Under the pieces are notes generated by a model. The model had not been told where the DNA came from, made no database searches, and saw nothing but the letters and a program-made list of their open reading frames with translations. This document shows, in pieces, positions 1,965-26,864 of a stretch of 32,000 nt of DNA. The position numbers were made by a program, and so were the translations under genes. Source of the stretch: Deinococcus radiodurans R1 = ATCC 13939 = DSM 20539 (GTDB lineage: Bacteria > Deinococcota > Deinococci > Deinococcales > Deinococcaceae); assembly GCF_000008565.1 (NCBI RefSeq), contig NC_000958.1, positions 135,432 through 167,431 on the forward strand. The letters are read 5' to 3'. Position 1 is the first letter of the stretch; every line of letters begins with the position of its first letter.

Positions 1965-1973
1965 GAAACCGGT
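1965..1973. repeat. 9-bp direct repeat GAAACCGGT abutting the outer (left) end of IS-B copy 1; partner at 21512..21520
   Basis: Left junction is GAAACCGGT|CTCAGTAGGTGAC. Right junction of copy 2 is GTCACCTACTGAG|GAAACCGGT. The match is exact at both outer IS junctions. Confidence 0.85.
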
Positions 1974-2022
1974 CTCAGTAGGTGACAACTTCAGTTTGCC
2001 CTCGTCCCAGACGGCAAAAACC

Positions 2023-2060
2023 AACAGTCGGCCCCATCAAGCTTGATGGGGCCGACTGTT
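2023..2060 (-). terminator. 38-bp perfect palindrome inside the IS-B left end; candidate minus-strand intrinsic terminator
   Basis: AACAGTCGGCCCCATCAAG|CTTGATGGGGCCGACTGTT centred on AAGCTT. On the minus strand the hairpin is followed by GGTTTTTGCC. The plus strand has only a weak T tract. It is conserved exactly in copy 2 (20354..20391). Confidence 0.5.
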
Positions 2061-2195
2061 CGCGGTTTCCTGAGAGTGTGAAATCAACAGAGGGGAGCTG
2101 CCCAGCAGGCTACCGCACTCACCGGGCACTTCAAAACGCATGCCAGTCACCTCCGCATCGATACACTCCAGCGCCTAATTGACGTCCTCCTGGCG

Positions 2196-3179
2196 ATGAT
2201 TGCCGCGAGGAGCGTCAATCATCACGACCTGAGTGCCCATATGCCGGGGATGAGTACCCCGCAGGGCAAGAAGAGACGAGCAGACCGCACCTTCCGGGAT
2301 GAGCAGCTGGACAGGGGCTTTTTCATCGCTCTGCTTGTCGTCCATCTTCCACCGGGGAAGGTTTTGCTAAGTCTGGACCGCACCAATTGGGAGCACGGGG
2401 AAACGCCCATCAACTTTCTGGTGCTTGGAGCCGTGGTTCACGGCTTCACCCTGCCGCTCATCTGGGTGCCTCTCGACCAGTCTGGGAACAGTCACACCTA
2501 CGCTCGAATGTGGCTGGTGTTGAAGCTCCTTCGGGCCTTGCCAGCGAAACGCTGGCTGGGCCTGGTGGCCGATCGGGAGTTCATCGGCGCGGAATGGTTC
2601 CGCTTTCTTCGTCGTCAGGGCATCAAGAGGGCAATTCGTATCCGACAGACCGACATGCTAGACGACATGAAGGGGAAAGAGTGGTTTGAGCACGTCCAGC
2701 ACGGTCATTTTCACGAGATTGGCGAAAAGGTGTTCGTGTTCGGGGAGTTGATGCGGGTGGTCGCAACGAGGTCACCCACAGGTGACCTCGTCATCATCGC
2801 CACAGATTTCAGTGCTCGGAAGACCTGGAGGCTCTACAAACAGCGCTGGTCGATTGAGTGCACCTTCAGCAGTTTCAAAAAGCGAGGCTTTGACTTAGAG
2901 CGAACCGGAATGACGGAAAGGAGCCGTCTACAGCGACTCTTCGGCCTGGTGACATTGGCTTGGATGTTCTGTTTGCGCCTGGGGGTCTGGCTGAGCCAGA
3001 CCTGGCCCATCCCCGTTCTGAAGCATGGTCGGAGAGCGGTCAGTCTGGTGCGGCACGGTGCTCAGCATCTCGTGGATGCCCTACGGTGGAAACCCCAACA
3101 GTTCATGGCGGTCCTAGAGGTGTTAATACAGCCTTTTTCCCCGCCAGGAGCGGCTGGAAGCGAAGTTGTCACCTACTGA
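2196..3179 (+). CDS. IS4-family DDE transposase (327 aa from first ATG)
   Basis: Contains LSLDRTNWEHG, LVADREFIG and YKQRWSIECTFSSFK (Y-x2-R-x3-E-x6-K). The frame stays open upstream to the stop at 2079-2081 with protein-like sequence (..LRIDTLQRLIDVLLAM..) but no ATG/GTG/TTG, so the true N-terminus is uncertain. Confidence 0.9.
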   Translation: MIAARSVNHHDLSAHMPGMSTPQGKKRRADRTFRDEQLDRGFFIALLVVHLPPGKVLLSLDRTNWEHGETPINFLVLGAVVHGFTLPLIWVPLDQSGNSHTYARMWLVLKLLRALPAKRWLGLVADREFIGAEWFRFLRRQGIKRAIRIRQTDMLDDMKGKEWFEHVQHGHFHEIGEKVFVFGELMRVVATRSPTGDLVIIATDFSARKTWRLYKQRWSIECTFSSFKKRGFDLERTGMTERSRLQRLFGLVTLAWMFCLRLGVWLSQTWPIPVLKHGRRAVSLVRHGAQHLVDALRWKPQQFMAVLEVLIQPFSPPGAAGSEVVTY

Positions 3180-3194
3180 GCCTGAGAATACCTT

Positions 3195-4148
3195 TTACAG
3201 GCTGAGAATACTGCTGTAGTCGCCGGTGAGACCGTCGGGGAAGAAGCCGCCCCTGGCTGCCTTGCCGGTTGTGTCCAGGAAAACGATGTTGGCGACCTGC
3301 CGGGGCGTACGGCTGAAAGCGATACCGTTACTGTCCGTAGGGATGATATTGGCGTCACGCGCCAGAACCCCGGCGTTGCCATTCGCCGTGATCCCCTGAT
3401 CGCGGTCATCGGCGCCGTCCACGGAATCACGCAGATTGCTGATGGCCTGCACGACCTGTTCGACCGTCAGCCCAGCGGCGGCCTGCTCAGTGCGGCGCAT
3501 GAAAAGCTGCGTGCGAATGGAACCGGCGTGGTAGGCCTCGACGGCCAGGATGCCCGCCGCGTTTTCGAGGTTGCCGCCCGGCTTGTCGCCCACCAGCAGA
3601 CGCGCCGCACCCTTGTATGCCGTCACGCCTACGTCTTCAAACACGAAGGCGCCATGCAGGAAAAACAGCGGGTTGGCATAAGGGTTGAAGTTGGTGATGG
3701 CCCCATTCGAGGCGAGGCTGCCCGCCGCCAGGAAAGAAGCGCTGAGGTCAAGTCGGGGCTGCGCGACAGCGGCGCTGCCCAGCACGCTGCGGATGACCTT
3801 GACGTGTGCGAGCTCGTCGTCGGCGATTTCTTCCATCATCGCCCGGAGGTCGCCGGTCAGCCCTGGGACTGCGGTGCCGCCCATGCCCGTCACGCCGCTG
3901 GGCAAGGTCACCTTGCTGGCGTCACCGCCGGCTGCGGTCAGCTCGTTGAGGCGTCCCACAGCGGCGAGATAAAATGCCGCTTCGAGGTATTCGAGGTTCA
4001 GCGCGAAGTTGAAGATGGTCGCGTCAAGGTTGGTCTTGGTGGGCTCTGAGGCCCCTACATTGGCGCAACCGGCCAGGACAGCCCCAGCTCCCATAGCCCC
4101 TGCCATCCCCAAAAAACGGCGGCGGGTGCTTTGCATTTCTTCTTTCAT
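3195..4148 (-). CDS. ferritin-like domain protein, Tat-exported lipoprotein
   Basis: Twin-arginine signal plus lipobox (STRRRFLGMAGAMGAGAVLAGC). Ferritin_2-like core (FNFALNLEYLEAAFYLAAV ... DELAHVKVIRSVL). I chose the ATG at 4148 because GAGGAAGG lies just upstream; the longest ORF extends to 4208. Confidence 0.8.
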   Translation of the reverse strand: MKEEMQSTRRRFLGMAGAMGAGAVLAGCANVGASEPTKTNLDATIFNFALNLEYLEAAFYLAAVGRLNELTAAGGDASKVTLPSGVTGMGGTAVPGLTGDLRAMMEEIADDELAHVKVIRSVLGSAAVAQPRLDLSASFLAAGSLASNGAITNFNPYANPLFFLHGAFVFEDVGVTAYKGAARLLVGDKPGGNLENAAGILAVEAYHAGSIRTQLFMRRTEQAAAGLTVEQVVQAISNLRDSVDGADDRDQGITANGNAGVLARDANIIPTDSNGIAFSRTPRQVANIVFLDTTGKAARGGFFPDGLTGDYSSILSL

Positions 4149-4273
4149 GGCCTTCCTCGTGTCACAAACAGAAGACAAGCAAAGCAGCGGTTCCACAGGC
4201 GTGGACAACTGTCTCCCAAGACTTTTATCTTCTCTTTGATCGACTCATTTATAGTGCCTGAGTTCCCGCTCAA

Positions 4274-4293
4274 CATGAGTTTTAAAACACATG
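4274..4293. promoter_or_regulatory. 20-bp near-perfect palindrome CATGaGTTTTAAAACaCATG; candidate operator upstream of the ferritin-like gene
   Basis: Nine of 10 arm positions pair. It sits in an AT-rich intergenic stretch 126-145 nt upstream of the ATG at 4148. A minus-strand TATAAA (4248-4253) lies about 20 nt downstream of it. Confidence 0.3.
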
Positions 4294-4431
4294 TCTTGAC
4301 TTAAGGTCGGGTACTCAGACCGGCTGGCTGTCGCTCTGAGCTCTTTCCCTGAGCTGCCATTTCTTGAAGACAGACTGGCCTACTGATGCGGGACGCACTT
4401 GAGAGCCGCTGTCTGATGCTTCTTGAGTGGC

Positions 4432-5700
4432 TTAGCTGGCTTCAGGGTCAGCCGCGCTGGCGGCCTGCGCAGCGAGCCGGCTGACCGTTAGGCCCTGCAC
4501 GATGATGCTGAAGACCACCACGACATAAGTCATCACCAGAAACAGCTCCCGCTGTGGCCCGGCAGGAACCGTAAACGCCAGGGCCACACTGATGGCGCCG
4601 CGCAGGCCGCCCCAGATCATGAGCCGCCGGGTGTAAGGCTCAAACTCATGGGCACGGCTCAGGGCGGCGGCTGGCAGCACCACACTGACACTCCGGGCCA
4701 GCAGCACCAACGGAAGAGCGATCAGGCCTGCCAGCAGCGCCGACGCGCTGAACTTCACGGCCACGATTTCCAGCGCCAACAGTGAAAACAAAGAGATGTT
4801 GAGCAGCTCGTCGGTCAGGTGCCAGAACGAGTCGAACTTTTCCCGGCTCGACAGCGCCCCTGGCCGCCAGTCCGTGAGCGATCCCATCAGCAGGCCGGCA
4901 GCCACCGCTGCGAGAGGCCCAGAAACATGCAGGTGCGTGGCGATGGCGGTGCACGCCATCACGACGCCGAGGGTCAGCAGCACTTCGGTCACAAAGTCGT
5001 CGACCCGCTTCAGGGCCAGGAAGCCCAGCCATCCGAGGAACCCGCCCAGCAGCAGACCCCCTCCCGCTTCTTGCAGAAAGAAACGCAACACGCCGCCGGC
5101 GCTCAGCTCCGGCCCGTGACCCGCAGCGCTCGACGCCGCAACGCCCGCCAAGACAGAGAACGCCACCACACCTACCCCGTCGTTAAACAGGCTCTCTCCC
5201 GCCACCAACGTCTCAATGCGGCTGGGCACGTGGGCTTCTTTGAGCATGCCCAGCACCGCGACCGGATCAGTCGGTGAAATCAGCGCACCGAACAACAGGC
5301 AGTAGGCCAGAGGGGTAGGCAGGCCCACCAGCTCCAACAGCAAATAGGTGCCGCCCCCAACCAGCGCGGTGGAAAGGGCAGTCGAGAGCAGTGCGAAGAC
5401 AGTGACCGGTCCCCGCAGACGCCACAGGGCGTGGGTATCGACACTCAGGGCGCCAGCAAACAGCAGAAAGGAAAGGACCCCTTGGAACACGAATTCGTCA
5501 AACTGGATTTTGCGTACCAGCTCCACAGCCTCCTGCGCGAAAGGAACCTTGAGCGCCGTCAGCACCACCAGCAGCAGGCTGATCAGGAGGCCCCCCACCG
5601 TGACCCCGATGGCTGCCGGCAGATGAAGGACGCGGACATTCAGGAAAGCGAGCGCGGCAGTCACGCAGACCAGCAAGGCGCTCAGATCAAGGAGGTGCAT
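4432..5700 (-). CDS. Na+/H+ antiporter, CPA1/NhaP type (422 aa)
   Basis: Polytopic membrane protein with NhaP-like blocks (LFGALISPTDPVAVLGMLKE, AGESLFNDGVGVVAF). SD AGGTGG lies 4 nt upstream of the ATG. Confidence 0.85.
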   Translation of the reverse strand: MHLLDLSALLVCVTAALAFLNVRVLHLPAAIGVTVGGLLISLLLVVLTALKVPFAQEAVELVRKIQFDEFVFQGVLSFLLFAGALSVDTHALWRLRGPVTVFALLSTALSTALVGGGTYLLLELVGLPTPLAYCLLFGALISPTDPVAVLGMLKEAHVPSRIETLVAGESLFNDGVGVVAFSVLAGVAASSAAGHGPELSAGGVLRFFLQEAGGGLLLGGFLGWLGFLALKRVDDFVTEVLLTLGVVMACTAIATHLHVSGPLAAVAAGLLMGSLTDWRPGALSSREKFDSFWHLTDELLNISLFSLLALEIVAVKFSASALLAGLIALPLVLLARSVSVVLPAAALSRAHEFEPYTRRLMIWGGLRGAISVALAFTVPAGPQRELFLVMTYVVVVFSIIVQGLTVSRLAAQAASAADPEAS

Positions 5701-5709
5701 GGTTCCACC

Positions 5710-6718
5710 TTATTGATCGCGGCGTAGATTTGAGTCGATAAGTCGTTGAGGCAGTTCGATATACCGAAGGCGCTGCCACGCGCTGACCAGTCGCCCTTTG
5801 AGTTCAACGATCGAACGCGCACAGAAATTCCCCAACGCATTCCGCTTCACGTATGCCCACACCAGCTCAATCGGGTTCAATTCCGGGGCGTACGGCGGTA
5901 GAAACACCAGTGAGAGGCGTTCGTGGGTCTCCACGAACGCCTGAGTGGCTTTAGATCGATGAATGCCCGCGTTGTCCAGCACTACCACAAGCTCCCCTTG
6001 GATGTGCCGCAGGAGGTGTCGAAAGAACTGAGTGACATCCGTACTCCGAATCGCTCCAGATCTTGTGTTTTGGAAGAATCGTCCGTCCGAGGTTATTGCC
6101 CCGATGGTGGAGAGCTTCTCCCAATTCGCCGGAAGCTTGACCAGGGGCGTCACGCCCCTGGTTCCCCAAGTCCGCCTTCGCACGCCTTTCAGCGAGAAGC
6201 CGACCTCATCCAGATACACTAGGATTGCGCCCTCAGCGACCTTTTTTTTCCAACTCCGGTGCAACCTGTTCTTTCCAGGATGCGATCCGAAGTTCGTTGC
6301 GCTCGGCCGCTCGGCCATCTGGCATCTGGGGCGTAAACCCCAAGCGTCTGAGAATCTTCCGCACGTGGTCGTGGTGGTACCACACGTCAAAGTGCCGCCC
6401 AATCAGGTTGGTGACGCGTAGGGTCGTCCAGGTGTCATCAGGGAAGCCATGGTGCAGGGCGCCCTCCCGCAGGAAGGTGCGAAGCTGCTCGTGTTGCGTC
6501 GCGCTCAGACGTGCAGAAGCGCCACGGGCAACGGTGGCCTGAAGGCCACCGTTACGCTTCAGGCGGGCTTTCCAGGTGTACACGGTGTGTACCGACACGC
6601 CGAAGTGCTGAGCAATCTCTCGGTTTCGATGCGTCCCTCGTTCAATCCATTCAAGCGCGGCCAAGCGGCGCTCCTCAAGCTGAGCGCGGGAATACTGGGT
6701 CGGCTGCCATCCGGGCAT
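5710..6718 (-). CDS. IS630-family transposase in two overlapping frames (OrfA 6233..6718 HTH part; OrfB 5710..~6250 DDE part)
   Basis: OrfA ends ..APELEKKGR*. OrfB continues ..WKKKVAEGAILVYLDEVGF.. with DDE-type blocks (VLDNAGIHRS, LPPYAPELNPIE). The frames meet in an A8 run, and OrfB is +1 relative to OrfA. Confidence 0.8.
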
Positions 6719-6758
6719 ACGGCCAGCTTACCAATTCATACCTACACCGTTATCAATA
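5711..6758 (-). mobile_element. IS630-family element flanked by TA
   Basis: Imperfect terminal inverted repeats TTGATCGCGGCGTAG (5713-5727) and CTACACCGTTATCAA (6742-6756), 12 of 15 positions matching. TA dinucleotides lie at 5711-5712 and 6757-6758, as expected for IS630/Tc1 target duplication. Confidence 0.8.
6242..6249 (-). promoter_or_regulatory. A8 homopolymer at the OrfA/OrfB junction of the IS630 transposase
   Basis: The minus strand reads TTG GAA AAA AAA GGT CGC TGA (OrfA) and TGG AAA AAA AAG GTC GCT (OrfB). Losing one A would fuse the frames as ..ELEKKVAEGAIL.. Confidence 0.6.
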
Positions 6759-6891
6759 GGGGGAATTGAAGACGTGACCACCGTAGAGGCACCCTGCACA
6801 GCTTTTTAGGACTGACGCTGGACCTCAGGGACCTGGGCGCAGTTCCTTTGTCCCGCGTTTTACCCTCGTTCTCCAGTGATAGCGTGTCCGA

Positions 6892-6958
6892 ACGCTCCTT
6901 CAAAAGGAGCGTAGGCGCGGCTTATGAGCCTTGGAGAGGGTACGGGGCCGCGCTTTTT
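6892..6958. terminator. two adjacent hairpins downstream of the ABC operon; the second is followed by T5 on the plus strand
   Basis: ACGCTCCTT-CAA-AAGGAGCGT (6892-6912). GGCGCGGC (6914-6921) pairs with GCCGCGC (6947-6953), followed by TTTTT (6954-6958). The T tract favours plus-strand termination; the minus-strand version is weaker. Confidence 0.3.
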
Positions 6959-6995
6959 CGTCTGCCAAGCGGACTGAGAAGCCGCAGGTGGCCGG

Positions 6996-7801
<806 letters not shown>

Positions 7802-7805
<4 letters not shown>

Positions 7806-8857
7806 CGTGTCTTCCTCAGCAAGTACAGAAAGTAGGGCGCTCCTACCAGGGTCGTGAAGATGCCCGCCGGAATTTCCAGCGGCGGCAACAGCGACCGCCC
7901 CAGCGTGTCCGCCGCCAGCACCAGCGCCGCGCCGAGCAGCATGGCAATGGGAAGCAGCCGGATGTGTTTGCCGCCCACCAGCAGCCGCGCCAGATGGGGG
8001 GCCAGCAGCCCGACAAACCCCAGGATGCCTGCTCCCGTGACAGCCGCGCCCGCCAGCGCCACGCCGACGCTCAGGCACAGCAGCCGCGCCGCACCGACCC
8101 GCGTGCCCAGCGAGGTGGCGAGGTCGTCACCCAGACTCAGGACGTCGAGCGTGCGGGAGAGCAGCAACGCGGCAGGCAACAACAGGGCCGCCCAGGGCAG
8201 CAGGCGGGCGACCCGCGCGCTGTCCGCGCCGTAGACCGTGCCGGTCAGAAAGCTCAGCGCCGCGCCCAGGCCGTCTGGCGCCCGCACCAGCACGAGTTGC
8301 TGCGCCGCGCCGAGGGCCGCCGCCACCGCCACGCCCACCAGAGCCAGCCGGACGGGATGCAGGGAGCCCGGCCCGAGCCCGCTCCATTCTTTTGAGAGCA
8401 GCAGCACCAGCCCGAAGCCGCCCCACGCCCCCGTCAGCGCCGCCCAGGGCAGTCCCCCAGCAGGCGCGCCCGGCCAGGCGAGCAAAAAGAGGGTCGCCGC
8501 AAGGCCCGCGCCCGCACCTACCCCGATGAGGTCCGGCGAGGCGAGCGGATTGCGGATGACGCCCTGCAAGATCGCCCCACTCGCGGCGAACATCGCGCCT
8601 GTGAGCATCGCCGTCAGGACGCGTGGCAGGCGCAGCTCCAAGACGAGTTGCCGGGTGAGGTCGTCTCCCTGGCTCCGCAGCGCACCGAGCACGTCGGCAG
8701 GGGGCGTGCGGACCGCGCCGACACCGAGCGCCAGGACGCTCAGAACTGCCAGGAGGAGCAGCAGCAATATCCCGGCACTCAGGGTGCGGGCGGCAGGACT
8801 GGGCCGCAGCGGAGCAGCGCGCCGCACGTTCACCGCCCCACCCGCCGCGCCAGCCAC
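7802..8857 (-). CDS. iron-siderophore ABC permease (FecCD family)
   Basis: FecCD-like blocks (IRNPLASPDLIGVGAGAGLAA, GILGFVGLLAPHLARLL). The start may instead be the GTG at 8833, which forms a GTGA overlap with the upstream stop. Confidence 0.9.
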
Positions 8858-9804
8858 ACGAAAAAGGGTGCGCCCACGGCGGCCACCAACACGCCCACCG
8901 GCGTTTCGGCGGGGCGGGCAAACAAGCGGGCCCCGACGTCCGCGAGTGCCAGGAAGGCCCCGCCCAAGAGTGCGGCGAGCGGCAGGCTCCAGCGGTGGTC
9001 GGCGCCCATCAGCGCGCGCGCCAGATGAGGAATCACCAGCCCCACGAAGCCTACCGGCCCCACCACGCTCACCGACACCGACGCCAGCAGCACGCCCAGC
9101 CCGGTGACCAGCAGCGCGTCGCGCTCCGCGTCGGCGCCCAGGCTGCGGGCCACGTCCTCACCGAGGGCCAGCACGTTCAGCCGGGGCGTGAGCAGCAGCG
9201 CTCCGAACAGGCCCAGCAGCGTCGGCGGGGCCACCTGTCCCATCTGTTCCCAGGTGCGCCCCGCGACACTGCCCGCGAGCATAAACAGCGCCCCCTGAAC
9301 CCGTTCCTCCCACAGCAGTTGCAGGGTGCGGCTGCCCGCGCTCGCCAGGCTCGCCACCGCTACGCCCGCCAGCGCGAGCCGCAATGGCGTGACCCCGACA
9401 CTGCGGGCCGCCGAATACGCGGCCAGCGCCGCCACCACGCCCCCCGCGAAGGCCGCCGGCACAAAGGCCCAGGTCGGTGCCGCCGGAAAAAACACCACCA
9501 GCAGCAGCGCGGCGAACGCCCCGCCCGCCTCCACACCCAGGATGCCGGGGTCAGCGAGCGGGTTGCGCGTGACCGCCTGGAGCAGCAGCCCCGAGACGCC
9601 CAGCCCCGCCCCCGCCAGCAGCGCGACCAGCGTGCGCGGCAGCCGCAGGGTCTGCACCACCAGACTCTCGTTGGAGCCGTCGGGACGCAGCAGGACCTGC
9701 ACCGCTCGCGTGAAGGGCAAGTCGGTGGCCCCCAGCGCCAGAGAAGCAGTAAATGCCGCTGCCAGCGCCACCAGGCCCAGCAGCAGCCACAGGGGTCGGG
9801 TCAA
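8830..9804 (-). CDS. iron-siderophore ABC permease (FecCD family)
   Basis: TRNPLADPGILGVEAGGAFAA and GFVGLVIPHLARAL. TTG start in a TTGA overlap with the upstream gene stop. Confidence 0.9.
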   Translation of the reverse strand: MTRPLWLLLGLVALAAAFTASLALGATDLPFTRAVQVLLRPDGSNESLVVQTLRLPRTLVALLAGAGLGVSGLLLQAVTRNPLADPGILGVEAGGAFAALLLVVFFPAAPTWAFVPAAFAGGVVAALAAYSAARSVGVTPLRLALAGVAVASLASAGSRTLQLLWEERVQGALFMLAGSVAGRTWEQMGQVAPPTLLGLFGALLLTPRLNVLALGEDVARSLGADAERDALLVTGLGVLLASVSVSVVGPVGFVGLVIPHLARALMGADHRWSLPLAALLGGAFLALADVGARLFARPAETPVGVLVAAVGAPFFVWLARRVGR

Positions 9805-10724
9805 GGCGCTTGCCGCCAGTAACCGATGGTGTTCACGTCAGCCGCCGGAAAGCGGGCTTTCAGGGTCTTTTTCAGCGCCAGCGACGCGCCCACTTCCGCC
9901 GCGGCCCAGACCGCCGCCGGAGCAGTGCCGGGCCACCCGGCAGCGTCTTGCAAGTGATCCACCCAGGTCAGGCGGGCTTCTGGGGGCAGCGGAACCTCAT
10001 CCAGATAAGCCCGGTCGCCTGCGTCCCTGACCTGCAGCAGCACGTGAAGCGGGAAATGGTGCGGCCAGGTTTCGAGCAGGGCGGCGATGGTCGGCAGCGC
10101 GGTTTCGTCGCCGAGCAGCCAGGTTTCGCCCGCCGCGAAGTCGGGAAACAGCTCATGCCGCTCGCCACGTGCCGTGACCGTCTCACCGGGCCGCAGCTCC
10201 CTGGCCCAGCGACTGCCGGGACTGCTTTCGTGGCTGTAGATGTCCACCAGCACCCGCCCGGCGCCCACCCGGCGCAGGGTGTAGGGACGCGGCGTCTGGC
10301 CCTCGGCCACGTCAAAGCGGCAGCTGTCGCCGGGGCGCCAGTCGCTGCGGTCATCACCGTTCAGGGCGAGGGTCAGGCGGCGAAAGTGTGCGCCCACCCG
10401 CTCGTTTTTCTCCAGTTGCCAGTGGGCCACCCGGCGCGGCGGCCACACGCCGAGCCGCTTCATGGCCTCCAGAAAGGTCGCCTGCACCTGCTCTTCCAGC
10501 GTCCCCTCGCCCACGAAAGGCACGAAGGACCGCTGCCCGGCGCAGTCCACCTCGAGGCCATCGCTGAACAGCTGGCGCAGCTCGGCCCGCTCCGCCTTCC
10601 GCTGCGGCGTGAAGGCCCGCACGCAGTAGAGCAGCGCCTCGGCATGGTCGTCGTTGAGGTGCGTGATGGTGGCGCGAATCTCGTCGCCGGTGAGCGGCTG
10701 GCGAGCAGTCACAGCGCGGCTCAT
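9801..10724 (-). CDS. siderophore-interacting (ferric-reductase type) protein with an N-terminal DUF2470-like extension (307 aa)
   Basis: N-terminus [19 protein letters not shown] resembles DUF2470. The core has RPYTLRRV (FAD-binding RxYS/T-type motif) and [17 protein letters not shown] (SIP NAD(P)H-domain signature). ATGA overlap with the SBP stop. Confidence 0.75.
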
Positions 10725-11695: not shown

Positions 11696-11702
11696 GGCGC
11701 TG

Positions 11703-11732: not shown

Positions 11733-11748
11733 GTTAAAAGTGGCCCTC

Positions 11749-11767: not shown

Positions 11768-12037
11768 GGCGAATTTCTCAGTTTCAGTGGGTTTTCGCTC
11801 GCTCCCCTGCTTTTGAGTCGCTTTGAAAGGTCAAGCCGTCGTCTCATGACCGCGTGGCGCTTGCCGCGTCGATATGCTGTCGGCAGGATTTCTGACTTTA
11901 TAGACACAGTGACCATCGGCACTGATACCCGGTCTGAACTTTTGTAATTGTCGCGGCTCCTGAACCCTCACCAGCTCCGCCGACCGCAGACTGAAGGGAA
12001 AGCCAGCAGCTCCCGGCCAGTCTCTGTGTCGCTGGTC

Positions 12038-12605: not shown

Positions 12606-12800
12606 AGGCTAGGAGTGTATCGGGCGCAAACCTCAACGTGACCGCGTCAAGGACCCCCTTGAACAACTTGAGAATGGCCGTTGCCTAACAAGCGACACTT
12701 CAGAGCACAGAGCAAACTGGACAGAACCTGTGATGTCCTGTTCAGGCTCACAGCTTCCTGAAAAATCCGGGGCGCCGCTCCTTCGGGACCGATTGGCCTC

Positions 12801-13013
12801 TCATTCTGCACGCGCTCTGCTGCTGGAGAGGGCCTCAGACAGCCCACGCGGATGTCTCCAAACGTTCCGGAAAATTCTGCCTGATTTGTGAGTGCCCTCC
12901 GCAGACGCTTTGAGCAGCGCGATGACCTCTCCCATACCCGCTTCCGAAAGCTGGAGTTTGTCCGGTAACAGTTCATATCCAGATTCATCGGTGTATTTCT
13001 TTCTGATCTTCAC
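12801..13013 (-). CDS. small hypothetical ORF (70 aa) in a lower-GC orphan stretch
   Basis: GTG-initiated ORF (M/V)KIRKKYTDESGYELLPDKLQLSEAGMGEVIALLK... I recognise no family, and it overlaps another ORF in a different frame. Coding status is doubtful. Confidence 0.2.
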   Translation of the reverse strand: MKIRKKYTDESGYELLPDKLQLSEAGMGEVIALLKASAEGTHKSGRIFRNVWRHPRGLSEALSSSRARAE

Positions 13014-13088
13014 GCTCTGATCCGGACGATGCCGCGTTCATTCTTGAACAGTGAGGGCGGCTTGAGCCGCTCCACAAGCCCTACACTT

Positions 13089-14402
13089 TCAGTGCAGGGG
13101 CGTTGAGTCTCCAATCCGGCGCAGGCGTACCCGCGTGATTTTCAGCTCAGAGACTTCCTCCACCGTCAGGTCGACGCCTTGGACGTGTACCGTTACACCG
13201 GAGGCAGGCACTGTTCCGGTCTGCGCCAGAATCAGTCCGGCGACGGTGGAGACATCCATACTGCCCAGCGGCAAGCCGTAATCGTCGCGCAGTTCGCTGA
13301 GGGTCACCTCGCCGTCGAGGGTCAGTGAGCCGTCCCCATTTTCCTGAATCCAGAAGCCGTCGCTCTCTTCTTCCTCGTCCATCACGTCGGCAATCAGGTC
13401 GTCCATTGTGACGAAGCCCAGTGTGCCGCCGAATTCGTCCGCCACCAGCGCCGCGTGGACCCGCTCGCGCTTGAACATCGAAAGCAGTTCTTCTGCCTTC
13501 GCGGTGGCGGCCACACTGGGCAGCGGACGCACCAAGCGGCTCAGGTCGGGAACGCGGCCCGACGCCTGCGCCCGCATGAAGTCTTTGATGTGCAGCACGC
13601 CTATGATGTGGTCGAGGTTGTCCTCAAAGACAGGGTAACGGCTGCGGGGTGAAGCAGCGATCCGGGTCGCCACGTCCTGCGACAAGGCACGCACGCTGAG
13701 CACTTCCATGCGGCTGCGCGAGGTCATCAGCTCCTCGGCGGTGCGTTCTTCCAACTCGAAGATGTTGTGAATCAAATCACGCTGCACGTCGCCCAGCTGT
13801 CCGCTGTCAGCCACTTCCTCAGTCACGATGGCGAGTTCTTTGGACGTGTACAGCGTGGCTGACTTGTCCGGTTCCGGAATACGCAGCAGCCGCATCAGCC
13901 CCAAGGCCAGGAAGTTCAGCACTGCCACGAAGGGCCGGAAAATCAGGCCGAATACCCTCATCAGCGGATTGACGCTCAGACTCATCTGCTCGGGTGCCTG
14001 CAGGGCCAGCGCCTTGGGAATCATCTCCCCAAAGACGACATGCATAAATGTGATGGAACTCAGGGCGACGACGAAGCCGACGGTATGCGCGGTGTCGTGG
14101 CTCAGCCCCCACTTTTCGAAGGGGCCATACAGCCACCTGGCGACGGCAGGCTCGCCGTACATCCCCAGACCGATACTCGCCAGCGTGATGCCGAGCTGCG
14201 CGACAGCGATGTAGCCGTCTTTTCCAGTGGGACGGTCGAAGACCCCCAGCAGCCAGCGGGCCGCGCCGTTGCCACCCTCGGCCAGGGTCTGCAAGCGGCT
14301 GCGCTTGGCCCCTACCAGGGCGAACTCAGCAGCAACGAACAGGCCGTTGAGAACGACGAGCGCCAGGATGATGACAACAGGCAAGAAGACGTTCTGCATC
14401 AT
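13089..14402 (-). CDS. CNNM/HlyC-CorC family transporter (DUF21 + CBS pair + CorC_HlyC), 437 aa
   Basis: N-terminal DUF21 membrane domain (AEFALVGAKRSRL), a CBS-pair region, and a C-terminal CorC/HlyC domain (GFVTMDDLIADVM .. TLDGEVTLSEL). Confidence 0.85.
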   Translation of the reverse strand: MMQNVFLPVVIILALVVLNGLFVAAEFALVGAKRSRLQTLAEGGNGAARWLLGVFDRPTGKDGYIAVAQLGITLASIGLGMYGEPAVARWLYGPFEKWGLSHDTAHTVGFVVALSSITFMHVVFGEMIPKALALQAPEQMSLSVNPLMRVFGLIFRPFVAVLNFLALGLMRLLRIPEPDKSATLYTSKELAIVTEEVADSGQLGDVQRDLIHNIFELEERTAEELMTSRSRMEVLSVRALSQDVATRIAASPRSRYPVFEDNLDHIIGVLHIKDFMRAQASGRVPDLSRLVRPLPSVAATAKAEELLSMFKRERVHAALVADEFGGTLGFVTMDDLIADVMDEEEESDGFWIQENGDGSLTLDGEVTLSELRDDYGLPLGSMDVSTVAGLILAQTGTVPASGVTVHVQGVDLTVEEVSELKITRVRLRRIGDSTPLH

Positions 14403-15700
14403 GCCTGGCCCCCAGGCAGGTCAGTTTCAGGCAGGTCGAAGCTCGCCCGACGGATGGCGCGGCGCTCTACCGCGTCCACGCGCAGTCGCAGGCTCGTCGG
14501 CTCGATCACGATTTCGTCGCCCACCAGCGGCAGGCGGCCCAGCTCCAGCCACAGCAGACCGCTCACGGTGTCCACCTCGTCGGTGGGCAGCTTCAGAGAG
14601 AGACGGCTGTTGAGGGTTTCGAGCAGCACGTCACCGCGCACGCTCACCCGCCCGCCGGACACGGTAATGGGTTCTTCCTCCTGGTCGAACTCGTCCTGCA
14701 GCTCGCCAAAGATTTCTTCCAGGGCGTCTTCCAGCGTCACCATGCCGATGACAGTGCCGTACTCGTTGACCACCAGGGCGCTGTGTCTGCCACTCTCGCG
14801 CAGATGCGTCCAGAGGTCGGGGACACTCATCACCTCGGCGACGATGAGGGGAGAGACCATCACGCTCGACACCGGGGCCAGCGGGGTGCGCTGCGCGGCG
14901 AGGTACAAGCGGCGCAGGTGAACCACGCCCACGATCTCGTCACCTTGCGTGACCGGGAAGCGGGAGTAGGGGCTGCCTGCCAGACTCCGCAGGGCGTCGG
15001 CTACCGGCACGTTCACTGGTACAGTAAGCAGCTTCGTCCGGGCGCTCATGATTTCGCGCACGATCCGGTTTTCCACGTTCAGCACACCTGCCAGCATGTC
15101 GCGCTCCTCGGCGTCAATCAGCCCGCCCGCCGCACTCTCGCGGTACAGGCCTTCGAGTTCTTCCGGAGAATGGATGTGGGCGTGGCTGTGGTCGGCGCTG
15201 AGTTTCAGGCCCTTCATGAGCGCGAAGGCCGTGCCGTTGAACAGCGCAATCAGCGGCGTGAACAGCCACTGGCTCAGCTGCATCGGCACCAGGGTCGCCA
15301 GCGCCAGCCGCTCGGGATAGCGCAGGGCCACCGTCTTGGGCAGCAACTCACCCAGCACGACCTGCAAGATGGTGATGAGTACCAGCACGACGAGGACGGC
15401 CACCGCCTGCCCGGCTTCTCCGAAGTAGGGCGTGAGCAGCGGGGTCAGCTGCGCTTGGCCGTAGGACCCGGCCACCAAACTGGAGAGGGTAATGCCGGTC
15501 TGGCAGGCCGCCACATAATTGTCCAGCCGCTTGGGGTCTTTGAGGATATGCAGCAGCCGGCCCGCCGCGCTATTGCCCGCTTCGGCAGCTTCCTGTACCC
15601 GGGAACGGCGCGAACCGACGGTGGCGAACTCAGCGGCGACGTAGAGGGCATTGACGGCCACCATGACCAGAATGACGAGAAGAGGCACCAGGGCGTTCAT
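14399..15700 (-). CDS. CNNM/HlyC-CorC family transporter, tandem paralogue, 433 aa
   Basis: Same domain order (AEFATVGSRRSRV .. GMVTLEDALEEIFGEL .. VSVRGDVLLETL). Its stop overlaps the downstream paralogue start (ATGA at 14399-14402). Confidence 0.85.
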   Translation of the reverse strand: MNALVPLLVILVMVAVNALYVAAEFATVGSRRSRVQEAAEAGNSAAGRLLHILKDPKRLDNYVAACQTGITLSSLVAGSYGQAQLTPLLTPYFGEAGQAVAVLVVLVLITILQVVLGELLPKTVALRYPERLALATLVPMQLSQWLFTPLIALFNGTAFALMKGLKLSADHSHAHIHSPEELEGLYRESAAGGLIDAEERDMLAGVLNVENRIVREIMSARTKLLTVPVNVPVADALRSLAGSPYSRFPVTQGDEIVGVVHLRRLYLAAQRTPLAPVSSVMVSPLIVAEVMSVPDLWTHLRESGRHSALVVNEYGTVIGMVTLEDALEEIFGELQDEFDQEEEPITVSGGRVSVRGDVLLETLNSRLSLKLPTDEVDTVSGLLWLELGRLPLVGDEIVIEPTSLRLRVDAVERRAIRRASFDLPETDLPGGQA

Positions 15701-16143
15701 GCTGACCTGCTTATAGCGAAGCTGAACCGGAAGACTGAAGTAAACAAGAATTCTCCTGAGTGTGGTCTAGAGAAAAATAGAACCGCATGTGGGAACGGCT
15801 GCCACAAGAAGTAGGCACGCTCCCGTGAGCACGGAGCGAATTCATGAACAAATGACCAGGCCAAAAACCACCAGCTGGCTTGACCGCCCTCTGTATGACG
15901 CCGACACGACCAGTTCAGATCAGGATGTGAGGGCTTCCGACGGCTGATCATGCCGTGCCGGAGCAACCTTCCCGGGAAATGGAGAGCAACATATAACAGC
16001 ACTGGGAGGTTCGTCATTGTCGATAGGCGGCGCCATCAGAAGACAAAATAACTTGAGCAGAGCAGCGAAGGCATGAGGGACGGCTTACCTTTGAGCCGCG
16101 CCACAGCAGGCAGAAAACAAGATGTCCTCTGCGCTCCAGCGGT

Positions 16144-16923
16144 TCACTCTCTCCGACTTGAATCCCCTGTGACCTCAGGCTGATGAAGCTTGACGGGCTG
16201 ATGGCCGCGAACCCGCATGTTTAGTGCCTCGACCACAACAGCGAAGCCCATGGCGAAATAGGTGTACCCCTTGGGAATCTTGAGGTGGAACCCCTCGGCC
16301 ACCAAGTTCACGCCGATCAGCAGGAGGAACGACAGCGCCAGCATCTTCACGGTGGGATGCTTCTGCACGAACTCGCCAATTGGCCTGGCCGCGAACAGCA
16401 TGATTCCGACAGTCACAATGACGGCCCAGACCATCACGCCAATATCGTCGGCCATGCCGACGGCGGTAATCACGCTGTCGAGGCTGAACACGATATCCAG
16501 CACCATAATCTGCGCGATGATGGCGGCAAAGCTGGCTGTTCCGGCTTTCAGAGGAGTGGTTTCCTGGTGATCAGGCCCTTCAAGCAGTTCGTGCATTTCC
16601 TTGACGGCTTTGTACATCAGGAAGAGGCCACCACCCAGCAGCACGAGGTCTTTTCCGGAAAAGCCCAGCCCAAAGACCTGAAACAGTTCGTTTTTGAGGC
16701 TCACCACCCAGGCAATACTGGCCAGGAGCAATAGCCGGGTGATGGCGGCAGCGAGCAGGCCGATGGTGCGGGCACGGTCACGCTGTTCGGGGGGCAGTTT
16801 GCCTGACAGGATGCTGATGAAGATGACGTTGTCGATGCCGAGGACGATCTCCAGCAGCAGCAGGGTGCCGAACGCCAACCAGGCTTCAGGTTGGGCCATC
16901 CAGGCGAAGAGGGTACCGATCAC
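16144..16923 (-). CDS. TerC-family integral membrane protein
   Basis: LEIVLGIDNVIFISIL and a second TerC repeat (VLDIVFSLDSVITAVG). I chose the GTG at 16923 because GGAG lies 5 nt upstream and the resulting N-terminus ..LFAWMAQPEAWLAFGTL resembles other TerC-family N-termini as I remember them. Alternatives are the ATG at 16899 or the longest ORF to 17058. Confidence 0.8.
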   Translation of the reverse strand: MIGTLFAWMAQPEAWLAFGTLLLLEIVLGIDNVIFISILSGKLPPEQRDRARTIGLLAAAITRLLLLASIAWVVSLKNELFQVFGLGFSGKDLVLLGGGLFLMYKAVKEMHELLEGPDHQETTPLKAGTASFAAIIAQIMVLDIVFSLDSVITAVGMADDIGVMVWAVIVTVGIMLFAARPIGEFVQKHPTVKMLALSFLLLIGVNLVAEGFHLKIPKGYTYFAMGFAVVVEALNMRVRGHQPVKLHQPEVTGDSSRRE

Positions 16924-17369
16924 GAGAACTCCAATAGGGTATGGGCAAACGTGACTCACGAAAGTCGCGCTCTGGACGTATCCGCTGAGTTCAGGGTGAG
17001 GCGGAAGCGCAGGCAGGGAAGCGTGCGTTGAAACCATCGTCCGGGAGAAGTTGTGCACGAATCATGTCGGTTGCATGAAGGACCTTCATTTGACTGTCGC
17101 GCCTCTTTCTATAGTTGGTGCGTGATTGGGCGGGTCTGATTAGATCATTTGACAAAAAGAGTGCACCGCTTTTTGACGAGCGGAGCGAGTGCAAACCAAC
17201 GAGCAGGACGGACTTGCAAAGCTGCGAAGCAGAGAATGGAGCGGGTGGCGGCGCTGTTCCGACGCACGCGTAATTCGGAGAACTGCTCTAAGCCAGGCCC
17301 CGAATCGCAAAGGAAGAGCCCGCAGTAACGGGTGTATTGGAGGAGGAATTTTAAGGCAGCAGGTACGAA

Positions 17370-18691
17370 CAATGGTTCGTGCAGTTTTAGGCGGCTTTAA
17401 GTCCGAAATCCAGCGGACTGAACGGCGAATTCGCTCATTCTTCAAAGCGAGCCGAGAGGTCCAGATTGGATAAAATGACCTGGGCCAGCAGGGCGTTATA
17501 CGCCCTGCGTTTCATGTCTTCGAGACTGAACACCAGATCCTGCCCGCCACCTGCCGCTCGCAGGGCCTCCAGTCGGCAAAGATTCAGGGTCAGCAGCACC
17601 ACGTTCCAATGCGCCTCGATGCCCTGCTGTGACCGCAGTTGCACATCCTGGCCCCCCAGGAACTGTTTGGCATCCCGGAAGATCAGTTCGATCTCAAAGC
17701 GGCTTCGATACAGCGCCATGACCTCATGAGCCGGCATGGTCACAGCGGTGCTGAACAGCACCGCGTAGCCGGTGACCTGACCCTTTTTACCAATCTGCTG
17801 AATGACGACTGCGCGCACTTCCCGCGCCCACTGCACGCTCCAGACCACCTGCGTCCACACCCGCTCAGTCGGCCTTGCAGAGACGAGGTCGAAGCGCTGC
17901 AGGTCACTGAAGTCCACCTTACCGTCGAACTTCTTCTTTCGCCCCCGTCGTCTGGGATGCTCACCGGTGTAGAGGTCGTTGAGGTTGGCGTTGCGAGGCA
18001 ATCTGGAGATAAACGGGAGACCGTGACCCGTCACGGTCTCCACGATGGGTTCCTTCGCGTAATTCCCGTCGGCAACGACAGCAGCCAGATCAAGCTGTTG
18101 AACAGTCCGGAGATCGAGCAGCACGTCATCCAGCTGATCGGCGGCCTGTTCCAGACGAGTTGGAGCCTCAGACCCGGTCAGGGTCTGACGGACATCGACC
18201 GTCAAGGCCTGCCGGTGCTGGACATCAATGAGGGCACAACAGGATTGCTCGATTCCGCGTTCGGTCCGCGCGGCACAGCCATTCCAGAACGAGCCGAGGT
18301 GTGCGGTGTGCTGACCGGCTTTGCGGTGAAAAGAGGCGTCGATGGCCAGAACGCACAGTGGGCTGATCAGCCCACTCTCGATTGCTGTACTGACAGTCGC
18401 CTGGTGTAACGCGCCCCACGGAATGGCCCCATCGTCACTTCGGTGCAGCCAACGACGAATCGTACTCTCCGAGCAGGCTGCATACCGGGAGAGATTCAGG
18501 GCGTTCAGCCGTCCAGGAACAGCGAGAAAAACGCTGAGCAGCACGGTCAGGAAATTCCGCTGCGTCTTGCGCAGCGGGACCGCGCTGAGAACGTACTGTA
18601 GGATGGCCATCAGACCCATTGGAAGCGGTGATTTCACAGCTCCATTTTCAATGGGTCTTTCCTTTTGGGCTCAAAACTGCACGAACCATTG
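17370..18691 (-). mobile_element. IS-A (IS4/IS701-like DDE family), complete copy, 1322 bp
   Basis: 19-bp terminal inverted repeats CAATGGTTCGTGCAGTTTT (17370-17388) and AAAACTGCACGAACCATTG (18673-18691). It is inverted relative to the partial copy at 1..775. Confidence 0.9.
17435..18637 (-). CDS. DDE transposase of IS-A (400 aa)
   Basis: Candidate catalytic residues lie in VLAIDASFH, VVADGNYAKE and YRSRFEIELIFRDAK. It fills the element between the terminal repeats. Confidence 0.9.
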   Translation of the reverse strand: MKSPLPMGLMAILQYVLSAVPLRKTQRNFLTVLLSVFLAVPGRLNALNLSRYAACSESTIRRWLHRSDDGAIPWGALHQATVSTAIESGLISPLCVLAIDASFHRKAGQHTAHLGSFWNGCAARTERGIEQSCCALIDVQHRQALTVDVRQTLTGSEAPTRLEQAADQLDDVLLDLRTVQQLDLAAVVADGNYAKEPIVETVTGHGLPFISRLPRNANLNDLYTGEHPRRRGRKKKFDGKVDFSDLQRFDLVSARPTERVWTQVVWSVQWAREVRAVVIQQIGKKGQVTGYAVLFSTAVTMPAHEVMALYRSRFEIELIFRDAKQFLGGQDVQLRSQQGIEAHWNVVLLTLNLCRLEALRAAGGGQDLVFSLEDMKRRAYNALLAQVILSNLDLSARFEE

Positions 18692-18711
18692 GTCAAAGCC
18701 CCTACTCCTTT

Positions 18712-20220
18712 TTAATCCAGACGACCCGATCTGAAGTCCGCCCAGTAACTCTCCAGCTCACGGTGCACCACCGGCAACAGCAGGTATAGGCCAATGATGT
18801 TGGGAATAGAGGCGATAAACAGCAGCGCGTCGGAGAGGTTCACCACTGCGCCCAGACTCATGCTCGCGCCGATCACGACAAAGCTCAGAAAGACCAGCTT
18901 GAAGAGGTTGGTGGCCAGTTCGCTCGGACCAAGCAGATACCGCACCGCGCGGGTGCCGTAGTAGGCGTAGCTGATCATGGTGCTGAACGCGAAGAGGGCC
19001 ACGGCAATGGCGAGCACCGAGCTGAGCAGCGGCGAAACGCTGCGGAAGGCCGCGTTCGTCATCGCCACGCCCGCCACATCGGTCTGGGCGTAGGCACCGG
19101 TCACGATCAGGGCGAGCGCCGTCATCGTGCAAATGACCACCGTATCAATAAATGGCTCGAGCAGCGCGACGAAGCCCTCAGTGACGGGCCGGTACGTTTT
19201 GACAGGGCTGTGGGCGATGGCGGCCGAGCCGATGCCGGCTTCGTTGCTGAACGTTGCGCGCCGCATGCCCTGAATCATCACGCCGATAAAGCCACCGGCG
19301 ATGCCCTGCGGCGCAAAAGCGCCTTGCCAGATGGCAGAGAAGGCGGCGGGCAAGGCAGAAAAGTTCAGGGACAGAATCAAAATGATGGACACGATATAAA
19401 TCGCAGCCATGGCGGGGACGAGTTTGCTGGTCACGTTGGCGATGGCGCGAATCCCACCCAGGATGACCGCGCCGACGAGCAGCGCCAGGCCGAGCCCAAT
19501 CAACCAGGCCGAGCCTGACAGAGGGCTGGCCGGGCCACCCGTGGCGTTGATGATCTGCTGCGCCGCCTGGTTGCTCTGAAACATGTTGCCCGCCCCCAGA
19601 GAAGCAAAGATCATGCACAGGGCGTAAAACGGCCCCAAGACCCGGCCCAGCCCCGCTTTCCCTATTTCGGCCAGCCCCCGGGTCAGATAAAACATCGGGC
19701 CACCGTCTACGCGCCCATCGGGGTTGATGCGGCGGTATTTGACTCCGAGGGTACATTCCACAAACTTGGTGCTCATGCTGAGCAGGCCGACCAGAATCAT
19801 CCAGAACGTCGCGCCGGGCCCACCGAGGCTCAGGGCGACCGCGACCCCGGCGATATTTCCCAGACCCACCGTCCCGGAAACGGCTGTGGTCAGCGCCTGA
19901 AAATGCGTGACCATGCCTGGCGCGTCGGCGTCGTTGCCGTAGCGGCCACGCACGAGGTCGATCCCGTGTTTGAAGCCCCAGATATTGACGAAGCGGAAGC
20001 TGAGCGTGCAGACGATGGCGGCGACCGCCAGCCACACCACGATCAGCGGCACCTGGGCCTCACCGACGGAAATGCTGGCGAAAATGAGGCCTGATAAAAA
20101 GTGGCTGACGGGCGTGACCACCGCGTTGATCCGCTCATCCACGCTCGGGCCCTGGGCTGAAGCCCAAGAGACGGCGCCCAGCAGGCCAGTGAACACGAGT
20201 GCTGCTGGGAGGCGCCCCAT
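18712..20220 (-). CDS. alanine/glycine:cation symporter (AGCS family)
   Basis: AGCS blocks (GGPGATFWMILVGLLSMSTKFVECTLGVKYR, RATFSNEAGIGSAAIAHS). The track ORF runs to 20355, but its first 17 codons lie inside IS-B copy 2. The ATG at 20220 (MGRLPAALVF..) is the first plausible native start, though the start remains uncertain. Confidence 0.8.
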   Translation of the reverse strand: MGRLPAALVFTGLLGAVSWASAQGPSVDERINAVVTPVSHFLSGLIFASISVGEAQVPLIVVWLAVAAIVCTLSFRFVNIWGFKHGIDLVRGRYGNDADAPGMVTHFQALTTAVSGTVGLGNIAGVAVALSLGGPGATFWMILVGLLSMSTKFVECTLGVKYRRINPDGRVDGGPMFYLTRGLAEIGKAGLGRVLGPFYALCMIFASLGAGNMFQSNQAAQQIINATGGPASPLSGSAWLIGLGLALLVGAVILGGIRAIANVTSKLVPAMAAIYIVSIILILSLNFSALPAAFSAIWQGAFAPQGIAGGFIGVMIQGMRRATFSNEAGIGSAAIAHSPVKTYRPVTEGFVALLEPFIDTVVICTMTALALIVTGAYAQTDVAGVAMTNAAFRSVSPLLSSVLAIAVALFAFSTMISYAYYGTRAVRYLLGPSELATNLFKLVFLSFVVIGASMSLGAVVNLSDALLFIASIPNIIGLYLLLPVVHRELESYWADFRSGRLD

Positions 20221-20353
20221 CCATGGCTCTTGAGCAGAACTGCTGCCGCTCTCCGAACTCAACGGCCTGCTCCTTGCAGACGCCGTTCGACTCCAGTCGG
20301 CGCTCTCAGTAGGTGACAACTTCGGTTCGACGTTGTCCCAGACGGCAAAAACC

Positions 20354-20391
20354 AACAGTCGGCCCCATCAAGCTTGATGGGGCCGACTGTT
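20354..20391 (-). terminator. 38-bp perfect palindrome (copy 2 of the IS-B internal hairpin)
   Basis: Identical to 2023..2060 and followed on the minus strand by GGTTTTTGCC. Confidence 0.5.
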
Positions 20392-20526
20392 CGCGGTGTC
20401 CTGAGAGTGTGAAATCAACAGAGGGGAGCTGCCCAGCAGGCTACCGCACTCACCGGGCACTTCAAAACGCATGCCAGTCACCTCCGCATCGATACACTCC
20501 AGCGCCTCATTGACGTCCTCCTGGCG

Positions 20527-21510
20527 ATGATTGACGCGAGGAGCGTCAATCATCACGACCTGAGTGCCCATATGCCGGGGATGAGTACCCCGCAGGGCAA
20601 GAAGAGACGAGCAGACCGCACCTTCCGGGATGAGCAGCTGGACAGGGGCTTTTTCATCGCTCTGCTTGTCGTCCATCTTCCACCGGGGAAGGTTTTGCTA
20701 AGTCTGGACCGCACCAATTGGGAGCACGGGGAAACGCCCATCAACTTTCTGGTGCTTGGAGCCGTGGTTCACGGCTTCACCCTGCCGCTCATCTGGGTGC
20801 CTCTCGACCAGTCTGGGAACAGTCACACCTACGCTCGAATGTGGCTGGTGTTGAAGCTCCTTCGGGCCTGGCCAGCGAAACGCTGGCTGGGTCTGGTGGC
20901 CGATCGGGAGTTCATCGGCGCGGAATGGTTCCGCTTTCTTCGTCGTCAGGGCATCAAGAGGGCAATTCGTATCCGACAGACCGACATGCTAGACGACATG
21001 AATGGGAAAGAGTGGTTTGAGCATGTCCAGCACGGTCATTTTCACGAGATCGGCGAAAAGGTGTTCGTGTTCGGGGAGTTGATGCGGGTGGTCGCAACGA
21101 GGTCACCTGTGGGTGACCTCGTCATCATCGCCACAGATTTCAGTGCTCGGAAGACCTGGAGGCTCTACAAACAGCGCTGGTCGATTGAGTGCACCTTCAG
21201 CAGTTTCAAAAAGCGAGGCTTTGACTTAGAGCGAACCGGAATGACGGAAAGGAGCCGTCTACAGCGACTCTTCGGACTGGTGACATTGGCTTGGATGTTC
21301 TGTTTGCGCCTGGGGGTCTGGCTGAGCCAGACCTGGCCCATCCCTGTTCTAAAGCATGGTCGGAGAGCGGTCAGTCTGGTACGGCACGGCGCTCAGCATC
21401 TCGTGGATGCCCTACGGTGGAAACCCCAACAGTTCATGGCGATCCTGGAGGTGTTCATCCAGGCTTTTTGCCTGCCAGGAGCGGCTGAAAGTGAAGTTGT
21501 CACCTACTGA
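20527..21510 (+). CDS. IS4-family DDE transposase (327 aa from first ATG)
   Basis: Same motifs as 2196..3179. The frame is open upstream to the stop at 20410-20412. Confidence 0.9.
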   Translation: MIDARSVNHHDLSAHMPGMSTPQGKKRRADRTFRDEQLDRGFFIALLVVHLPPGKVLLSLDRTNWEHGETPINFLVLGAVVHGFTLPLIWVPLDQSGNSHTYARMWLVLKLLRAWPAKRWLGLVADREFIGAEWFRFLRRQGIKRAIRIRQTDMLDDMNGKEWFEHVQHGHFHEIGEKVFVFGELMRVVATRSPVGDLVIIATDFSARKTWRLYKQRWSIECTFSSFKKRGFDLERTGMTERSRLQRLFGLVTLAWMFCLRLGVWLSQTWPIPVLKHGRRAVSLVRHGAQHLVDALRWKPQQFMAILEVFIQAFCLPGAAESEVVTY

Positions 21511-21511
21511 G

Positions 21512-21520
21512 GAAACCGGT
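21512..21520. repeat. 9-bp direct repeat GAAACCGGT abutting the outer (right) end of IS-B copy 2; partner at 1965..1973
   Basis: See 1965..1973. Confidence 0.85.
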
Positions 21521-26862: not shown

Positions 26863-26864
26863 CT

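Follow-up and report, generated by a model that had tools for sequence, protein, structure and literature searches.

Among the closest described counterparts of the locus considered here are the composite transposons Tn10 (IS10) and Tn5 (IS50), which make 9-bp target duplications. These share with it an IS4-family DDE transposase, insertion sequence (IS) copies that are a few percent apart, an outer 9-bp duplication and transport genes in between. The locus lies on megaplasmid MP1 of Deinococcus radiodurans R1, within a stretch of 32,000 nucleotides (contig NC_000958.1, positions 135,432 to 167,431) that is called the window below and to which coordinates refer unless an accession or contig is named. 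Two direct copies of an ISDra1-family element, termed IS-B, enclose 17 kb of it, and the 9-mer GAAACCGGT stands immediately outside both. Unlike Tn10 and Tn5, the MP1 interior was evidently not contiguous when the 9-bp duplication arose, as the flanks of a second element, IS-A, indicate, and no second location or empty site is known. The two GAAACCGGT repeats are very likely the footprint of one old IS-B insertion, the halves of which were moved 19.5 kb apart by recombination between IS copies. The likeness to Tn10 and Tn5 would then be a product of recombination and not of unit transposition.

Another closely related arrangement is found in the IS26- and IS1-type inversions of IS-rich genomes and resistance plasmids, where the flanks of two inverted copies are swapped pairwise in the same manner. 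Reversing such a flip restores the duplications; in the present case, the restoration is complete for IS-A and extends to one of the two flank pairs in the case of IS-B. Unlike simple IS inversions, MP1 requires two nested exchanges involving two IS families, and leaves one IS-B without a recoverable duplication. A cointegrate formed through a shared IS would likewise place direct repeats around a segment of DNA and a resident duplication outside them, but in contrast to a cointegrate with an incoming replicon, any circle involved at MP1 would derive from adjacent MP1 DNA itself. For R1 laboratory lineages, transpositions, tandem-repeat changes and deletions have been reported, with no MP1 inversion among them, and repeats have been discussed as substrates for misrepair (PMC11276467); that work concerns the same genome and IS families. 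The rearrangement history proposed here was not found in the literature searched. Its mechanism is nonetheless familiar, homologous recombination being well known to reshuffle replicons rich in ISs, and the history involves no new mechanism or mobile element.

Both IS-B copies are on the plus strand, B1 at 1974-3180 with its transposase gene at 2196-3179, and B2 at 20305-21511 with its transposase gene at 20527-21510. Each is 1207 bp long, and the two differ at 31 positions (97.4% identity). Both end in perfect 19-bp inverted repeats (CTCAGTAGGTGACAACTTC) and encode, in an intact open reading frame (ORF), a 327-amino-acid transposase (DDE_Tnp_1, PF01609, E = 1e-24). This transposase, the 19-bp inverted repeats and the fixed 9-bp duplication place IS-B in the IS4 family (ISDra1 group), in keeping with its name in the Prokaryotic Genome Annotation Pipeline (PGAP), "IS4-like element ISDra1 family." The two halves of the repeat, GAAACCGGT on the plus strand at 1965-1973 and again at 21512-21520, are identical for exactly 9 bp and no further. 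The inner flanks differ from one another, and a partner for either was found neither on MP1 or CP1 nor in metagenome contigs, with CCTGAGAAT following B1 (3181-3189, plus strand) and GTCGGCGCT preceding B2 (20296-20304, plus strand). The initial annotation had described the paired copies, their common outer 9-mer and their unmatched inner flanks in just these terms. A 9-bp match at fixed junctions has a chance of 4^-9, or about 4e-6, rising to about 1e-4 if every non-self pairing of a left with a right flank (30 in all) is allowed among the six ISDra1 copies on MP1. The 9-mer itself occurs twice in the window and three times on MP1 as a whole (177 kb, both strands).

Related IS-B copies in other Deinococcus were found by scanning representative genomes with the IS-B transposase, a scan that returned no D. 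radiodurans locus. Five complete related copies had perfect 9-bp duplications (GAGGAGAAA, ACTGGAGAC, GCGAGACTC, GGAATGCTC and CGAAGTCGA), one other copy had an 8-bp duplication, and three had none. On plasmid CP1 of D. radiodurans, two of the three ISDra1 copies are flanked by 9-bp duplications, CGGCCTGAT and GGTGGTCAG. Nine base pairs is thus the target-duplication length of the ISDra1 family, as expected from the IS4 family in general. Because these seven other duplications all differ, GAAACCGGT is flanking DNA and not part of the IS end. This rules out a longer conserved IS-B terminus as the source of the repeat, which had been raised as an objection at the outset; nor did any strain examined show each IS-B copy with a duplication of its own. 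The outer 9-mers can therefore be regarded as a genuine target-site duplication that has been split.

The decisive evidence comes from IS-A, named "IS4-like element ISDra7 family" by PGAP. Copy A1 (plus strand) lies outside the IS-B-bounded block and enters the window with its 3′ part (1-775), the full element extending from -546 to 775. Copy A2 is 1322 bp long, is located inside the block (17370-18691, minus strand), is inverted relative to A1 and differs from it by one base, at IS-A position 975. IS2621, one of the ISs that moved between R1 laboratory lineages, is also 1322 bp long (PMC11276467), and this equal length suggests that IS-A is IS2621. Read in IS orientation, A1 has TTCGTA on its left and TTTGAC on its right, while A2 has TTTGAC on its left and TTCGTA on its right. 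The left flank of A1 lies outside the window (contig L011, 7448-7453) and its right flank at 776-781 on the plus strand. The right flank of A2, at 17364-17369, reads TACGAA on the plus strand and is the mate of the left flank of A1; the left flank of A2, at 18692-18697, reads GTCAAA on the plus strand and is the mate of 776-781. Such a reciprocal swap would arise by chance with a probability of about 4^-12. A copy of IS-A on chromosome II has an intact 6-bp duplication, GTTCAG, so 6 bp is the normal footprint of this element, and A1 and A2 each hold half of the duplication of the other.

Swapped flanks of this kind are a textbook sign of exchange between two inverted copies, and in the IS-A pair a single flip restores both duplications. 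It follows that the sodium:alanine symporter (AGCS) gene, now inside the block, and the DUF2259 gene, now outside it, were once adjacent across a single TTTGAC site, and that the DNA on the TerC side of A2 was formerly joined to that on the IS630/DUF3592 side of A1. The inferred events were reversed in silico on the actual sequence, with the IS-A by IS-A exchange undone before that between the IS-B copies. Flipping back window positions 776-17369 places A1 between two copies of TTCGTA and A2 between two copies of GTCAAA. It also leaves the IS-B copies inverted and 4133 bp apart, with one pair of flanks equal (GAAACCGGT) and the other pair unequal (CCTGAGAAT versus GTCGGCGCT). When this 4133-bp interval is flipped in turn, an IS-B bracketed on both sides by GAAACCGGT is recovered next to the defence helicase gene. 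Two reversals therefore yield three perfect duplications (6 + 6 + 9 bp, 21 bp in total). Directly observed are the lengths of the duplications, the exchanged flanks and the restoration of three duplications by two reversals; what we infer is the succession of the exchanges, the route they took and that they proceeded by homologous recombination.

In the history that these reversals suggest, one IS-B would have inserted between the DUF2259 and defence helicase genes, duplicating GAAACCGGT. The ancestral order would have been nrd genes, GDPD, DUF3592, IS630, IS-A (>), TerC to ferritin (+), IS-B (<), AGCS (+), IS-A (>), DUF2259 (-), GAAACCGGT, IS-B (>), GAAACCGGT and helicase (+). Two RecA-type homologous exchanges, one within the inverted IS-B pair and one within the IS-A pair, would have reshuffled this neighborhood. 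The simplest route is by nested inversions, in which the 4.1 kb between the IS-B copies would flip first, and the segment now at window 776-17369, between IS-A copies that had by then become inverted, would flip second. An equivalent end state could be reached if the direct ancestral IS-A copies excised a circle that re-entered through IS-B. Either way, the outcome would be the two 9-bp halves outside a direct IS-B pair, mimicking a composite transposon without transposition of the unit. B1 and B2 are identical over a stretch of 335 bp (positions 231-565), which is ample for homologous recombination between them. The inversion route is favored because every one of its intermediates is a complete plasmid. 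The "cargo" at 3181-20304 is in all probability resident MP1 DNA, and the inferred events are older than the divergence of all sequenced R1-type strains.

Of the origins that the initial annotation had offered for the block, successive IS-mediated inversions thus fit well, and the ancestral junction it had proposed, with DUF2259 divergent from the helicase across GAAACCGGT, was recovered in an independent reconstruction. Its circular molecule stands if the circle was excised from neighboring DNA by exchange between IS-A copies. In that case, the direct IS-A copies would have released IS-A, TerC to ferritin, IS-B and AGCS, which then re-integrated through the IS-B carrying the GAAACCGGT duplication. 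Worked from the coordinates, this yields the exact present order and all of the observed flanks. D. radiodurans is generally described as holding several genome copies per cell, and if so, exchange between sister MP1 molecules would do the same without the survival of an origin-less circle. On the other hand, the route needs a non-replicating circle or an unequal sister exchange and then a second specific exchange, whereas inversion leaves a complete, viable plasmid at each step, and none of the assemblies examined contained a circle or a deleted plasmid. It is therefore a tentative alternative, and one that is nested within the preferred history rather than added to it. A foreign circle, in which a plasmid or an element of another replicon brought in one IS-B with ion and metal transport genes and integrated into a resident IS-B, fares much worse. 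The direct repeats with an outer duplication have the look of a cointegrate, the inner flanks are unmatched, and AGCS and TerC lack syntenic orthologues in other Deinococcus, so an earlier horizontal origin of these genes is possible. However, the swapped IS-A duplications tie AGCS to DUF2259, and TerC to IS630/DUF3592, just outside the block, and no plasmid in the PLSDB collection carries the block with a single IS-B, making this origin very improbable.

The reading of the locus that the initial annotation had listed first is that IS-B, 17 kb of cargo and IS-B were inserted as a unit between DUF2259 and the helicase, making the 9-bp duplication as they did so. In its favor are direct copies of the same family whose outer 19-bp inverted repeats are intact, together with a duplication of family length just outside. 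Tn10 offers a parallel in its two IS10 copies, which are likewise a few percent apart, and the 2.6% divergence of the IS-B copies is thus no obstacle. What is absent is a contiguous interior. The IS-A copies inside and outside the block have reciprocally swapped duplications, and undoing their exchange leaves the IS-B copies inverted and brings one of the 9-mers to an inner side. The IS-A flanks would be back in place after any even number of flips; their swapped state in the present order therefore requires an odd number since the IS-A insertions, and one flip back destroys the composite configuration; the swap is thus incompatible with insertion of a unit in the order now seen. In addition, the block was found nowhere else among PLSDB plasmids, and ISDra1 is not among the ISs reported to have moved between R1 laboratory lineages (PMC11276467). 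A composite transposon is effectively excluded by the IS-A flanks, which likewise refute the description of the 19.5-kb block as a single inserted unit with a coherent cargo. Coincidence, or a preferred target struck twice independently, is hardly conceivable. It is an a priori possibility only, the additional copy of GAAACCGGT on MP1 notwithstanding; against it stand the value of about 4e-6 at fixed junctions, the lack of any consensus between GAAACCGGT and the seven other family duplications, and the expectation that each of two independent insertions would be flanked on both sides by a duplication of its own.

Several observations weigh against the preferred history of a split IS-B footprint and nested exchanges, or limit how far it can be followed. 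The inversion and circle routes leave identical sequence, with one exchange per IS family in each, and cannot be told apart. The second ancestral IS-B, between the ferritin-like gene and AGCS, lacks a duplication, and no partner copy with CCTGAGAAT on its left or GTCGGCGCT on its right was found among all the IS-B ends of MP1 and CP1 or in the metagenome contigs scanned for the IS end. The preferred history leaves at least one earlier event unexplained. No genome was found with the ancestral, an intermediate or the empty-site arrangement, all complete MP1 records being in the present order, and the exact empty-site junction, CCGCCTGAAACCGGTACATTTCC, had 0 matches in metagenome contigs. The variant patterns of IS-B, compared with the copies on MP1, on CP1 and in other species, revealed no interpretable crossover point. 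Lastly, the predicted IS630–IS-A–TerC join is present in a 19.3-kb JGI contig, L063, but was rejected as evidence, since the contig has the consensus IS-A base where A1 differs and, in its sister contigs, that left flank leads to two other partners. The assembly probably passed through a collapsed repeat to give this join.

The same caution applies to other metagenome contigs. In five JGI/ENA contigs with D. radiodurans DNA (L006, L063, L065, L066 and L083), flanks are joined that adjoin in no finished genome. L063, L065 and L066 were set aside for the consensus base at IS-A position 975 and for joining one flank to three different partners, L006 for a run of Ns inside IS-B, and L083 for joining the flanks of two different IS-B copies. 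Unless the reads behind them are consulted, such IS-spanning contigs are unfit to support structural variants. It is conceivable that IS-A- or IS-B-bounded segments still flip or excise at low frequency in living D. radiodurans, that MP1 is a mixture of isomers and that the L063 join is a real minority isomer, although this appears quite improbable. If true, DNA with DUF2259, AGCS or TerC would stand alternately beside the DISARM-like locus and the transporter genes.

The present order is common to all 14 near-complete MP1 matches in PLSDB; in two seeming exceptions among the MP1 records, the numbering begins within the region and the order is unchanged. The empty-site and block searches that the initial annotation had proposed gave the null result above for the former, and for the latter showed the block genes as a unit on no other plasmid in PLSDB. 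Neither the unit at another site nor an empty target in a relative was found, a result limited by the data available and by relatives that lack synteny. AGCS orthologues in other Deinococcus (74-78% identity) occur in unrelated chromosomal contexts, as does the TerC orthologue of D. wulumuqiensis, while the helicase homologue of D. radiophilus adjoins parAB-repA and not DUF2259. The inverted segments could not be dated or oriented by GC skew, which is too weak across MP1 for either purpose.

For annotators, the locus shows how recombination between resident ISs would here have made what is usually read as a composite transposon, namely two direct IS copies with a perfect duplication outside them. 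Six ISDra1 copies are present on MP1 (NZ_CP050118.1: 1625-2831, 17026-18232, 45028-46234, 63359-64565, 78909-80115 and 135586-137860), and none of the six retains its own 9-bp duplication, whereas on CP1 two of the three do. Such a contrast suggests that the MP1 copies have exchanged ectopically time and again, and hence that ectopic recombination between repeats has reshaped the plasmid more than once. D. radiodurans is known for the accurate reassembly of its genome, and the reshaping of MP1 bears on how often repeat-guided misrepair becomes fixed in Deinococcus. Two of the ISDra1 copies adjoin, through opposite ends, position 79 of two truncated IS-A copies (NZ_CP050118.1, near 78908/78909 and 135585/135586), and one of these two is itself interrupted by an IS630-family element. 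Earlier exchanges among the ISDra1 copies of MP1 are likely.

With regard to the surrounding sequence, the window matches MP1 of D. radiodurans R1 and R1-like strains with 100% identity over its first 25 kb; its last 7 kb were compared by annotation, and the genes there agree with that of MP1. The gene content listed for the block at the outset was correct. At 3195-17058, all on the minus strand, are genes for a ferritin-like protein, NhaP, an IS630-family element, a siderophore ABC system with SIP, TetR, two CNNM proteins and TerC, and these are followed by A2 and by an intact AGCS gene (18712-20220, minus strand, annotated start 20142 or 20220). TetR, the IS630-family element and the IS-A copy are additions to the original list. 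The IS630-family element (5710-6718, minus strand) has helix-turn-helix domains and DDE_3 and is frameshifted; its transposase is encoded by two overlapping ORFs, which some annotations merge into one product of about 335 amino acids.

Outside the block, the DUF2259 gene (1118-1831, minus strand; Pfam PF10016) encodes a secreted protein for which no homologue other than identical copies was found at E<=1e-10 among 5.8 billion proteins. It has weak plasmid matches only, at about 31% identity, on plasmids of Deinococcus sp. QL22, and judging from these searches it is effectively an orphan in the D. radiodurans genome. On the opposite side of the block, the defence helicase (21742-26862, plus strand) possesses DEAD, Helicase_C and MZB/DUF1998 domains and resembles DruE/DrmA. 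It is followed by a DpdE/DrmD-like SNF2 helicase (26865-29690), the second gene of the defence locus, and by a DrmMI-like methyltransferase (29687-31516). By its domains, the locus at 21742-31516 looks DISARM-like, with the helicase at 21742-26862 as its first gene. The ORF of this 1706-amino-acid helicase is whole in the window, while several other R1-type assemblies show it as two ORFs, through either a true frameshift or sequencing error. In D. radiophilus, a homologous run of helicase, second helicase, methylase and HicA genes directly adjoins parA-parB-repA on plasmid pRadio2 (NZ_CP086382.1, 73064-100316), in contrast to MP1, where the partition and replication genes are found beyond McrBC, on the other side of this defence island.

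Finally, the IS-B copies have internal features of their own. The sub-terminal regions of B1 (positions 20-30 and 1138-1188) are unlike those of every other MP1 copy. Complementarity of the terminal repeats is only slightly higher in the cross pairing, at 36 and 35 out of 47 positions as against 33 and 34. An Rfam search of the window gave no match. Four adjacent mismatches between B1 and B2 reflect one event, in which the 4-nt loop of an 18-bp perfect hairpin, GGTCACC-CACA-GGTGACC, has been flipped to TGTG (2770-2787 in B1, 21101-21118 in B2), changing Thr to Val in the transposase. The CACA loop occurs in four MP1 copies, and TGTG in B2, one other MP1 copy and one CP1 copy. Every IS-B copy also contains, in its left part and ahead of the transposase gene, a 38-nt perfect palindrome, AACAGTCGGCCCCATCAAGCTTGATGGGGCCGACTGTT (2023-2060 and 20354-20391), which may act as a terminator or regulatory hairpin that stops read-through from outside.

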